Assembly: GCA_052387495.1 (NCBI GenBank)
Contig: JBQTJC010000094.1
Source of the DNA: Sphingosinicella sp.
GTDB taxonomy: Bacteria; Pseudomonadota; Alphaproteobacteria; Sphingomonadales; Sphingomonadaceae
Reading direction: 5' to 3' (one strand)
DNA: 48,814 bases
A model generated the notes under the pieces. That model searched no databases. It was not told the DNA's origin and saw only the letters and a list, made by a program, of their open reading frames with translations. Made by a program: the position numbers and the translations under genes. Of this stretch, positions 21,149-23,513 are shown one piece after another; within the stretch, counting starts at the first letter, position 1, and each line of letters opens with the position of its first letter.

Positions 21149-22038
21149 CGCAGCGTTTCGGCACGGTCGCCGTCGTCGGCGCGCCCAATGCGGGCAAGTC
21201 GACCCTGGTCAACGCGCTGGTCGGGCAGAAGGTCGCGATCGTGACCCCCAAGGCGCAGACCACCCGCACCCGCTTGATGGGGATCGCACTGCTCGGCGAG
21301 ACGCAGCTCCTGCTGACCGACACGCCCGGCATCTTCCAGCCGAAGCGGCGGCTCGACCGGGCGATGGTCGCCGCCGCCTGGGGCAGCGCGCAAGACGCCG
21401 ACCTGATCGCGCTCGTCGTCGACGCTAAGACCGGGCTGACCCGCGGTCTCGACGAGATGCTCGACCGACTGAAGGAGCGGCGCGAGCCGAAAATCCTGGT
21501 CCTCAACAAGGTCGATCTGGTCGCCAAGGAGAGCCTGCTCGCGCTCGCCACGGAGCTCGGGCGGCGGACGGAATTCGAGCAGATTTTCATGATCTCCGCG
21601 ACGAGTGGCGATGGCGTCGCCGATCTCAAGGCCGCGCTCGCTGCACGCATGCCGGAAGGACCGTGGCACTTCCCCGAAGATCAGGTTTCCGACGCCACCG
21701 ACCGGATGATGGCGGCCGAGGTGACCCGCGAGCAGCTCTACCACCAGCTTCACGCCGAATTGCCCTACGAAAGCGCGATCGAGACCGAGAAGTTCGAGGA
21801 GCGGCCCGACGGCTCGGCTGTGATCCACCAGCAGATCCTCGTCGCCCGCGACAGCCAGAAGGCGATCGTGCTCGGCAAGGGTGGCACCCGCATCAAGGCG
21901 ATCGGCGAGGCGGCGCGCAAAGAGCTGTCGGCACTCCTCGGCCGCAAGGTCCACCTCTTCCTCCACGTCAAGGTCAACCCGAAATGGGAGGAGGACCGCG
22001 GGCTCTACCGCGAGATCGGGCTGGAGTGGGTGGAGTGA
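21145..22038 (+). CDS. era: GTPase Era
   Basis: GAPNAGKSTL, KAQTTR, DTPG, NKVD, KH domain; ATGA overlap with rnc. Confidence 0.97.
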   Translation: MTQRFGTVAVVGAPNAGKSTLVNALVGQKVAIVTPKAQTTRTRLMGIALLGETQLLLTDTPGIFQPKRRLDRAMVAAAWGSAQDADLIALVVDAKTGLTRGLDEMLDRLKERREPKILVLNKVDLVAKESLLALATELGRRTEFEQIFMISATSGDGVADLKAALAARMPEGPWHFPEDQVSDATDRMMAAEVTREQLYHQLHAELPYESAIETEKFEERPDGSAVIHQQILVARDSQKAIVLGKGGTRIKAIGEAARKELSALLGRKVHLFLHVKVNPKWEEDRGLYREIGLEWVE

Positions 22039-22060
22039 GGCCCGCCGCCGCGGACCTCAC
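22035..22060. terminator. Hairpin between convergent era and rtcB
   Basis: GTGAGG-C-CCGC-CGCC-GCGG-A-CCTCAC; no U tract. Confidence 0.45.
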
Positions 22061-22066
22061 CCTCAT

Positions 22067-23290
22067 TCACCCTTTGACGTTGACGATCTGCCGCAGCCGG
22101 TGCCGGATCCGCACCAGATCGGTCTGCGCGTTCATCACGGCGCCGATGTCCTTGTAGGCGGCCGGACTCTCGTCCAGCACGCCTTCGTCCACCCGCGCCT
22201 CGATGCCGCGCATTGCCGCCTCGTGCTGCTCGAGCGTGATCCGGCGCTTGGCTTCGCCGCGCGACATCAGCCGGCCCGCGCCGTGCGAGCAGGAGCAGAA
22301 GCTCTCGTCATTGCCGAGCCCCTCGACGATGAAGCTGCCGGTACCCATCGAGCCCGGGATGATCCCGAGCTCGCCCTGGCCGGCGCGCACCGCGCCCTTG
22401 CGGGTCACCCAGACGCGCTCGCCGAAATGGGTCTCCTGCACCGCATAATTGTGGTGGCAGTTGATCGCCAGCTTGTCGGTCTTGAACGCCGGCAGGTGCT
22501 TGCGCAGCGCGTCGAGGACGCGGCCCATCATCAACTCGCGGTTCGCGATCGCATAATCCTGCGCGAAGTGCATCGCTTCGATATAATCGTCGAAGAGCTG
22601 CGAGCCTTCGCTCAGGAACGCGAGATCGCGATCGGCAAGGTGGAAATCCAGCCGCTCCTTCGCGATCGCCTCCCTGGCGGCGTCGATGAAGTAGGTGCCG
22701 ATCCGGTTGCCGGTGCCGCGCGAGCCCGAATGGAGCATCACCCACAGCCGATCCTCCTCATCGAGGCAGATCTCGATGAAGTGATTGCCCCCGCCCATCG
22801 AGCCGAGTTGGTCGCTGGTCTTGCCCTCCACCTTCGGGTGCCTGGCGACGATCTTGCGCCAGCGCGCCTCGAAGCGATCGTACCAGGCGCGCGCCACCGA
22901 ATTCGGGGTCACGACCCAGCCGCCCTTCGCATGGTTCGCGCTTTGGCTCGATTCGAAGCCCTTGGGTACGGCACGTTCGATCTCCGCCCGGACCGCGCCA
23001 AGGCCGTCGGGAAGCCGGTCGGCGGTGAGCGAGGTGCGCACCGCCATCATCCCGCAGCCGATGTCCACGCCCACCGCGGCCGGCACGATCGCCGCCTTGG
23101 TGGCGATGACCGAGCCCACGGTCGCGCCCTTGCCCCAGTGCACGTCCGGCATGCCCGCGACATGGCCGAACACGAACGGCAGCGACGCCACGTTGCGAAG
23201 CTGCTGCATCGCCCCCGCCTCGAAAGGCTGGTGGCTGTCCCACAATTTCAACGGCACGCCGGCCGTCTGATGAATCGAAAACTTGTCCAT
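22067..23290 (-). CDS. rtcB: RtcB family RNA ligase (3'-phosphate/5'-OH)
   Basis: MPDVHWG, VGVDIGCG, GGGNHF, HSGSRG, CHHNY, PGSMG, SCSHGAGR, DESPAAYK. Confidence 0.97.
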   Translation of the reverse strand: MDKFSIHQTAGVPLKLWDSHQPFEAGAMQQLRNVASLPFVFGHVAGMPDVHWGKGATVGSVIATKAAIVPAAVGVDIGCGMMAVRTSLTADRLPDGLGAVRAEIERAVPKGFESSQSANHAKGGWVVTPNSVARAWYDRFEARWRKIVARHPKVEGKTSDQLGSMGGGNHFIEICLDEEDRLWVMLHSGSRGTGNRIGTYFIDAAREAIAKERLDFHLADRDLAFLSEGSQLFDDYIEAMHFAQDYAIANRELMMGRVLDALRKHLPAFKTDKLAINCHHNYAVQETHFGERVWVTRKGAVRAGQGELGIIPGSMGTGSFIVEGLGNDESFCSCSHGAGRLMSRGEAKRRITLEQHEAAMRGIEARVDEGVLDESPAAYKDIGAVMNAQTDLVRIRHRLRQIVNVKG

Positions 23291-23317
23291 GGCCTTGATC
23301 CTGATGACTGGAATTTC

Positions 23318-23394
23318 TGGTCAGGGTGGCCGGACTTGAACCGGCGACCTCCCGCTTCCAAGGCGGGCACTCTATCCACCTGAGCTACACCCTG
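23318..23394 (-). tRNA. tRNA-Pro(UGG), atypical
   Basis: 77 nt cloverleaf: CAGGGTG/CACCCTG acceptor, A73, encoded CCA; D-arm GCTC/GAGT; anticodon stem CCCGC/GCGGG, loop CTTGGAA; T-arm GCCGG-TTCAAGT-CCGGC. Confidence 0.88.
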
Positions 23395-23420
23395 AACGAC
23401 GGGCGCAGCGCGGCGACCCG

Positions 23421-23474
23421 TCAACCTCGTAGGCTGACGCTCCTCGGTCGGAGATAGAGTTCGGTCGCGCACAT
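23421..23474 (-). CDS. Putative leader peptide MCATELYLRPRSVSLRG (17 aa)
   Basis: ATG...TGA between candidate promoter and tRNA; rare codons CGA, AGG, CTA, CGA; no SD (near-leaderless). Too short to prove coding. Confidence 0.45.
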   Translation of the reverse strand: MCATELYLRPRSVSLRG

Positions 23475-23484
23475 AGCGGACGGG

Positions 23485-23513
23485 CCGATACGCGAATGGG
23501 CGATTCGGCGCAA
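23485..23513 (-). promoter_or_regulatory. Candidate sigma70 promoter TTGCGC-N17-TATCGG for leader-tRNA-rtcB
   Basis: 17-nt spacing, immediately after cobB stop; partial consensus only. Confidence 0.4.

Follow-up and report, generated by a model that had tools for sequence, protein, structure and literature searches.

A tRNA-Pro gene as the probable ribosome-controlled switch in a leader ahead of the RNA ligase gene rtcB in sphingomonads

The RNA ligase gene rtcB of a Sphingosinicella sp. is preceded by a leader that, judging from comparative sequence analysis and folding models, probably acts as a translational attenuator controlled by ribosome position, with a tRNA-Pro gene as its switch. 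The leader lies in the window (the whole 48,814-nt stretch of DNA that was analyzed) and runs from a short upstream open reading frame (uORF) through the tRNA-Pro gene to the Shine-Dalgarno (SD) region of rtcB. Since these elements carry a conserved chain of competing pairings, a ribosome stalled in the uORF would likely permit the tRNA to fold and rtcB to be translated. The predicted helices 2:3, 3:4, 4:5 (the acceptor stem) and 5:6 (the anti-SD helix), each named after the regions that it joins, are mutually exclusive and are conserved together with the geometry of the uORF. The features of the locus are as follows.

Minus strand: cobB (Sir2), the start of the minus-strand series cobB, promoter, uORF, tRNA-Pro, rtcB
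23513-23485, minus strand: candidate housekeeping promoter, with -35 TTGCGC (23513-23508), 17 nt, and -10 TATCGG (23490-23485)
23474-23421, minus strand: uORF, predicted near-leaderless, 17 codons plus TGA
23468-23463, minus strand: OFF helix 0a, predicted to pair with the tRNA variable loop/T-stem start (23349-23344)
23459-23450, minus strand: OFF helix 0b (uORF:D-loop), predicted to pair with the D-loop/3' D-stem (23379-23370)
23450-23445, minus strand: CGA-CCG (Arg9-Pro10), candidate stall site that may also pair with region 2
23439-23435, minus strand: region 1, CGTCA, predicted partner, in the absence of a ribosome, of the TGACG that overlies the stop codon
23423-23410, minus strand: region 2, which spans the stop codon and is predicted to pair with region 3 (2:3, ON)
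23409-23398, minus strand: region 3, anti-acceptor strand GCTGCGCCC, predicted to pair with the tRNA 5' strand (3:4, OFF)
23394-23318, minus strand: tRNA-Pro(UGG), called by ARAGORN, Rfam tRNA 66.6 bits, with encoded CCA and A37
23392-23384, minus strand: region 4, tRNA 5' strand
23328-23321, minus strand: region 5, 3' acceptor strand
23304-23299, minus strand: region 6, rtcB SD region TCAGGA, which the 3' strand of the tRNA covers in the predicted OFF fold
23290-22067, minus strand: rtcB, RNA ligase, 407 aa, PF01139, E 5.8e-127

The coordinates that the initial annotation had given for the uORF, tRNA-Pro and rtcB, as well as the spacers of 26 nt (uORF to tRNA-Pro) and 27 nt (tRNA-Pro to rtcB), all hold according to ARAGORN, Rfam and PF01139. 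PF01139 spans the full length of the protein, which aligns with solved RtcB proteins across 380 aa, as expected of an RtcB RNA ligase. Its score against TIGR03073, 149 bits, lies below the 271.8-bit cut-off for the PrfH-associated (ArmZ-type) RtcB. The same annotation had seen no rtcA, rtcR, Ro60/TROVE or prfH next to rtcB, and this extends to the whole source genome (84% complete), where RtcR, TROVE, RtcA and PrfH (TIGR03072) gave no match above cut-off. Likewise, neither the locus nor the rest of this 84% complete assembly showed the rtcR, rtcA and Ro60 genes by which an RtcR/sigma54 RNA-repair operon is recognized. In the Rfam scan of the locus the tRNA was the sole match and YrlA (RF02553) was absent; YrlA was detected in the control loci L013 and L050, which served as a positive control. 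No Rfam cis-element reached threshold in the leader. Downstream, rtcB and era converge, and a GC-rich hairpin free of a U tract was seen by eye between their stop codons (22030-22066).

The promoter proposed in the initial annotation is supported by TT(G/T)C and TA positions that are near-invariant across 33 aligned leaders, although a sigma-70 consensus scan of the leader did not call it. The uORF ATG lies 13–17 nt after the TA-starting hexamer, for which reason we predict a nearly leaderless uORF, with transcription starting ~3 nt ahead of the ATG. The uORF varies between 14 and 19 codons among the leaders and its peptide is only slightly conserved overall. Its stop codon lies 12–14 nt ahead of region 3 in 34/34 leaders, where the search tolerated 9–18 nt. 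After the uORF, the leader holds no U-tract intrinsic terminator of the kind found in trp/his-type attenuators, and the uORF is not enriched in cognate control codons, containing a single conserved CGA-CCN pair only. A sensor working through Pro-rich or rare-codon composition was rejected, as Pro and rare codons fell under the shuffle means (total Pro codons 30 vs 38.8 and, in another comparison, 17 vs 19.8). Four soil RNA runs from one study contained relatives only; two contigs that terminate close to the uORF start join the leader to the tRNA and rtcB, but they are not counted as support because a contig neither demonstrates transcription nor rules out a DNA origin.

The minimum free energy (MFE) fold of the tRNA-Pro(UGG) is a clean cloverleaf. 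The gene encodes CCA and carries C1-G72, A73 and G35-G36, which we take to be the identity elements of tRNA-Pro for ProRS. Three housekeeping tRNA-Pro genes were found elsewhere in the genome, all with G37, and since they include a separate tRNA-Pro(UGG) gene, the window copy is an accessory one. It is 82–87% identical to prophage tRNA-Pro genes and 64–69% identical to the housekeeping tRNA-Pro genes of its own genome; a plasmid BLAST with the element returned generic tRNA matches only. A37, which 25 of the 110 viral genes for this type of tRNA-Pro also carry, was rejected as a component of the switch because five leader-gated tRNAs have G37 (L290, L292, L296, L297, L468). Among the 46 other tRNA calls in the genome, one, a tRNA-Leu(UAA) (G000 C29:3279-3365), is likewise preceded by a 9-bp complement of its 5' end; it was set aside as a second candidate because it lacks a uORF. 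The accessory tRNA-Pro type also occurs 3' of a sigma54-like promoter, without a uORF, in RtcR-type loci (L050:513-590, L062:803-878, L057:662-738, L016, L017), where a GC-rich hairpin also precedes it. In L050 it lies upstream of a 515-aa Ro60-like ORF (labeled by eye), YrlA, rtcB and an rtcA-like ORF.

The window rtcB belongs to a clade of sphingomonad sequences with 64–100% identity (40 rows, SH-aLRT 96, in a quick tree with a midpoint root). The RtcB searches drew on 23/61 relatives, the best 80 of 599 GTDB loci and 28/156 genus genomes, with further searches contributing 2/401, 12/301 and 11/101; duplicates (L112, L120, L124, L267, L270) and loci truncated at the end of a contig (L029, L122, L275, L276) were dropped. 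In 34 of the 42 clade loci selected by protein, rtcB is preceded by the leader, consisting of the uORF, the hairpins and a tRNA-Pro or its remnant. The 42 loci comprise 15 with a uORF and a whole tRNA (including the unpublished G083), 19 with a uORF and a tRNA remnant, seven without a leader and one, L108, that has lost an internal segment; a pattern scan contributed L234 as the 35th leader. Among the remnant-type carriers is a cultured strain, Sphingomonas caeni LB-2 (L032). Hence both the uORF and the pairings, on whose conservation the initial annotation had staked its proposal, are conserved in homologous loci, the counts being non-independent because the loci are related. In the 19 remnant loci the tRNA has lost its D, anticodon and T arms to decay, yet the switch helices persist and covary. 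The cloverleaf as the switching element, as first proposed, therefore needs qualification: the acceptor stem is kept throughout, but the full cloverleaf is lost in the remnants. Even among the 15 intact tRNAs of rtcB leaders, three have a damaged anticodon loop. L110 and L116 have anticodon loops of six bases, L109 carries U33C, L234 has an altered T-loop, and in L117 and L119 the anticodon has changed from UGG to CGG, with proline retained.

The clade or motif is rare in even draws of genomes (2/401 at each of the family, order and phylum levels, own genome included). Within the genus, the region 3 motif was found in 16/156 genomes, each time beside rtcB, and the reversed control in 0. A metagenome pattern scan returned 120 loci, of which one had rtcB (L234) and one further was a true leader (L157), the pattern being too loose. 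A palindromic REP/MITE-like repeat was seen after cobB and before rtcB in L003, L004, L005, L033, L108 and L118; in L005 and L118 the promoter-like hexamer is kept and the leader is apparently deleted as far as the tRNA 3' end. In other rtcB clades (L010, L052, L065, L080, L083, L087, L093, L095) T-tract hairpins lie upstream of rtcB, some of them 3' of short ORFs, and by eye resemble terminator-type attenuators. In L035, L084, L094, L096, L101 and L104 a conserved gene, whose product presumably belongs with the SPFH/slipin proteins that it resembles, abuts rtcB upstream.

Two pairings had been named in the initial annotation, between leader ACTCTATC (23453-23460) and tRNA D-arm GATAGAGT (23369-23376), and between CCTGA in the tRNA 3' strand and TCAGG in the rtcB SD region. 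Both are located as described. Taken alone they are weakly above chance (shuffle P ~0.04 and ~0.09, respectively), and their weight comes from their conservation rather than from these values. Of that two-pairing scheme the anti-SD pairing stands, but the decisive competition, 2:3 vs 3:4, had been missed. The uORF:D-loop pairing (0b) is conserved where the tRNA is intact (90% of cells paired in 16 leaders, two pairs with two-sided change), but falls to 63.6% across all 33 leaders, which makes it an accessory OFF helix. Helix 0a was paired in 88.5% of cells in the same 16 leaders, two-sided changes being absent. In the 33-leader alignment, which omits L123 and L274 (the latter with a long insertion), the 9-bp helix 3:4 was paired in 99.7% of cells, with one-sided changes only, relative to the commonest pair. 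Helix 5:6 was paired in 86.8% and showed two-sided change at 3/5 pairs. Helix 2:3 was beyond the 5% shuffle level in 26/33 leaders, and its own partner paired better than swapped ones in 27/33. The weakest helix is 1:2, 98.7% paired in the intact group, yet not above shuffles in either the 15 intact leaders or the 18 remnants, where own exceeded swapped partners in 6/18.

An alignment-free test on the 18 remnants gave own partners better than swapped ones in 14 for 2:3, 15 for 3:4, 18 for 4:5 and 17 for 5:6, against three and six for two control pairings; the 4:5 value is partly circular because region 5 had been defined as whatever paired best with region 4 (in L030 and L278 it was assigned manually). 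In the 16 intact leaders the OFF structure as a whole gave no clear gain over shuffles (two-sided pairs, 25/500 shuffles); 2:3 plus the cloverleaf beat shuffles (1/500), with the T stem driving this result.

Folding models used a ribosome footprint of -12 to +14 nt. The mean MFE difference, ON minus OFF, over 33 leaders was 5.4 kcal/mol with the ribosome mid-uORF, 13.2 with it at the stop and 10.6 without a ribosome. This swing was positive in 32/33 leaders and above the mean for shuffled region 2 in 29; shuffling region 2 lowered it from 7.8 to 4.5. When the model was limited to RNA 3' of the stalled ribosome, intact leaders were close to balance as long as region 2 was free (+0.5, or -0.8 if coaxial stacking was included), and blocking region 2 raised the value to +8.5, in 15/15; in remnants the shift was from +4.7 to +7.9, in 14/18. 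With region 2 free, the value was at or below 0 in 7–9/15 intact leaders and 1–2/18 remnants. As the ON fold is thus seldom the lowest at equilibrium, co-transcriptional priority of 2:3 and tertiary folding of the tRNA must be assumed. In the window, the modeled cost of opening the rtcB ribosome-binding site (RBS) was 5.8–7.9 with codons 1–12 in the P site vs 10.4–11.0 with codons 14–17. It was lower in ON than in OFF for most leaders, a comparison in which the automatically chosen region 5 was the anticodon stem in eight intact leaders, and nearly flat in several remnants (L007, L028, L271, L277). In the ON/OFF energies, the partner-swap test and the downstream-RNA model, region 5 was the acceptor strand. 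Free ensemble folding was noisy, especially for remnants. Conservation, covariation and constrained folding together support both the view that the 3' strand of the tRNA acts as an anti-SD and the direction originally suggested, from stalled ribosome through tRNA folding to a free SD.

We infer the following cycle, in which the transcription start, the translation of the uORF, the effects of the ribosome footprint, the RNA processing and the trigger are all predictions. In the OFF state, a ribosome at the uORF stop codon would mask region 2; when no ribosome is present, the uORF RNA itself would tie up region 2, the D-loop and the V-loop. Region 3 would then invade the tRNA 5' strand and the freed 3' acceptor strand would cover the rtcB SD, so that, as long as the uORF is translated normally, the tRNA would stay unfolded and rtcB would stay off. 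In the ON state, a stall near codons 8–12 would mask the uORF and leave region 2 free. Helix 2:3 would form co-transcriptionally, the acceptor stem and cloverleaf would fold and the SD would be released. Cleavage by RNase P and maturation of the 3' end would finally set free a spare tRNA-Pro and fix the mRNA in the ON state.

The same leader and tRNA-Pro also occur without rtcB, in six viral and two cellular loci. The viral leaders are L290, L291, L292 and L296 (4/8 pattern matches) and L424 and L468 (among 60 distinct matches), from pattern scans that used 3:4 alone; the cellular ones are metagenome locus L157 and genome G496 (L297). No RtcB-like ORF was seen downstream of the eight leaders in ORF lists and downstream DNA inspected by eye. 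The acceptor stem is broken in L291. Some of the viral leader-gated tRNA-Pro genes sit within tRNA clusters. In L157:198-547 and L297 (G496:C1, ~1370700-1371200, minus strand), leader and tRNA-Pro head a small tRNA cluster that also includes tRNA-Cys and a His-like tRNA, which ARAGORN did not call and whose GUG anticodon was read by eye. Among 110 viral tRNA-Pro genes picked irrespective of their upstream DNA, four had an 8–9 bp hairpin, and a uORF was present in 3/4 of these vs 7/106 without a hairpin.

An in-frame CGA-CCN pair is present in 15/15 intact rtcB leaders, 8/8 leaders without rtcB (shuffle expectation: mean 0.4, maximum 4) and 2/19 remnants. In the folding models of L290, L296 and L468, 2:3 and the acceptor stem form when the P site is on the Arg codon of the Arg-Pro pair, and 3:4 forms with the ribosome at the stop. 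The minimum of the mean switch profile falls within one codon of Arg in the P site; in L290 and L296 the profile flips one codon later than Arg. CGA and Pro codons are described as slow in Salmonella (PMC4046918). CGACC can also pair with region 2 in 13/15 rtcB leaders and is conserved out of frame as well, and descent alone is enough to account for retention of the CGA-CCN frame. In L424 the sole Pro codon is CCA, yet the tRNA anticodon is CGG. These observations, together with the lack of Pro enrichment and the damaged anticodon loops of three intact tRNAs, speak against Pro sensing. The Arg-Pro pair is a possible sensor of Pro-tRNA, and the inducing signal may be narrower than the general translation damage first suggested, namely a stall at this site. 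The trigger is most likely one of two: slow decoding of CGA-CCN, through shortage or cleavage of Pro-tRNA, which by itself falls just short of being probable, or any mid-frame stall, a real but somewhat lesser prospect. Equally tentative is a feedback in which cleavage or depletion of Pro-tRNA would cause a stall at CGA-CCN and one event would yield both a replacement tRNA-Pro and the repair ligase, with a phage-type origin and with decayed relatives in which a tRNA gene was repeatedly turned into a pure cis-regulatory switch.

The output could instead be transcriptional, an unfolded tRNA and untranslated rtcB exposing C-rich RNA to Rho, with the anti-SD helix secondary. The leader is C-rich, it also heads tRNA clusters where there is no SD to control (L157, L297, L292), and Rho termination controlled by a uORF is documented (PMC12360218). 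We nevertheless consider this unlikely, given the covariation of 5:6 in the remnants (17/18), which points to selection for SD occlusion; the transcriptional and translational outputs are also compatible with each other. That the switch gates maturation of tRNA-Pro only, with rtcB a passenger translated regardless, is less likely still. The eight leaders without rtcB and the short 5:6 core of the window (just 5 bp, P ~0.09 alone) would fit such an arrangement, but 19 loci without a tRNA body still keep the uORF, 3:4, 4:5 and 5:6 before rtcB, and in most leaders the RBS opens at less cost in the ON fold than in the OFF fold. An ordinary constitutive tRNA-rtcB dicistron, whose uORF and pairings are by-products of GC-richness and descent, has very little probability left: GC-rich DNA pairs readily, as the upstream complement at 1/46 other tRNA calls illustrates, and seven relatives have no leader, but the shifts in uORF length (14–19 codons) preserve the frame with the stop position fixed, covariation continues after the tRNA has decayed and the leader recurs in viral contigs. 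A riboswitch-like RNA binding a ligand or protein in place of a ribosome sensor is the least credible, since the near-invariance of regions 3 and 4 that suggests it is explained by tRNA ancestry and dual pairing constraining both, and against it stand the uORF stop at footprint distance and the lack of any Rfam cis-element at threshold.

On the tree, leaderless loci are nested among intact ones (six changes) and the remnants form three supported groups (three changes, at least two forced). The simplest reading of these sequences is repeated decay from an intact tRNA; leader exchange between lineages is an alternative that we do not prefer. A leader-gated tRNA-Pro module of the phage or tRNA-cluster type would first have gained rtcB behind it, and the tRNA body would later have been lost in at least two or three lineages with the switch retained. 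The series from intact tRNA through damaged anticodon loop and acceptor-stem remnant to deleted leader would then be a natural record of a regulatory RNA arising from a tRNA gene.

In the open-access literature searched, no description was found of a uORF that gates tRNA folding or of a tRNA strand that serves as an anti-SD. In the translational attenuators of ermC and cat and in the trp leader attenuators, a uORF directs ribosome-dependent alternative helices. Attenuation in the his leader is described in PMC12360218 and PMC4046918. With all of these the window leader shares a uORF and, as predicted, a footprint-dependent 1:2/2:3/3:4 logic, and with the ermC type, whose hallmarks of a conserved short upstream ORF and an SD-occluding helix (5:6) in competition with another (4:5) are present, it shares SD occlusion as the predicted output. 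It differs in that a tRNA acceptor stem supplies both segment 4 and segment 5, one from each of its strands, and in having no U-tailed terminator, control-codon run or conserved arrest peptide. In the autoregulation of Salmonella tufB, the last tRNA of the operon (thrT) is reportedly involved. There, too, tRNA genes are co-transcribed with a translation gene and ribosome progress sets the mRNA fold (PMC12360218, PMC6134099), but sensing takes place at the start of the tufB coding region, 3' of the tRNAs, and leads to termination by Rho (PMC12360218), and no upstream uORF invades a tRNA acceptor strand.

Among systems that induce RtcB, the Anabaena trn L-array resembles what is predicted for the window leader in that spare tRNAs and rtcB are co-induced by translational stress (PMC8421152); it differs in being governed by a repressor that acts on direct repeats in the promoter, and the text consulted mentions neither a leader ORF nor a folding switch (PMC8421152; the TrcR paper on this system is PMC10272220). 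In the rsr-yrlBA-rtcBA operons under RtcR/sigma54, RtcB is likewise induced by tRNA damage and a tRNA-like RNA adjoins rtcB, but these have their own CARF-domain protein sensor, Ro60 and Y RNAs (PMC7790460, PMC4201824), none of which was found here, and the RNA in the window is a full tRNA rather than YrlA. A further parallel is the PA5471.1 leader peptide that controls armZ (RtcB-like) in Pseudomonas aeruginosa, where a short leader peptide and stalling induce an RtcB-family protein with no protein regulator; the mechanism proposed there is transcriptional attenuation with terminators and no tRNA (PMC12057347). The window RtcB is also set apart from ArmZ by falling under the cut-off for release-factor-associated RtcB, with prfH not found in the genome. 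If the proposed switch is correct, the tRNA is the moving part of an mRNA switch and its own maturation is controlled by the ribosome, and the inducer of this 200-nt element would hint at the physiological substrate of stand-alone bacterial RtcB. It would then represent a third route to the induction of RNA repair, after RtcR/sigma54 and repressor control, that operates through no protein regulator.
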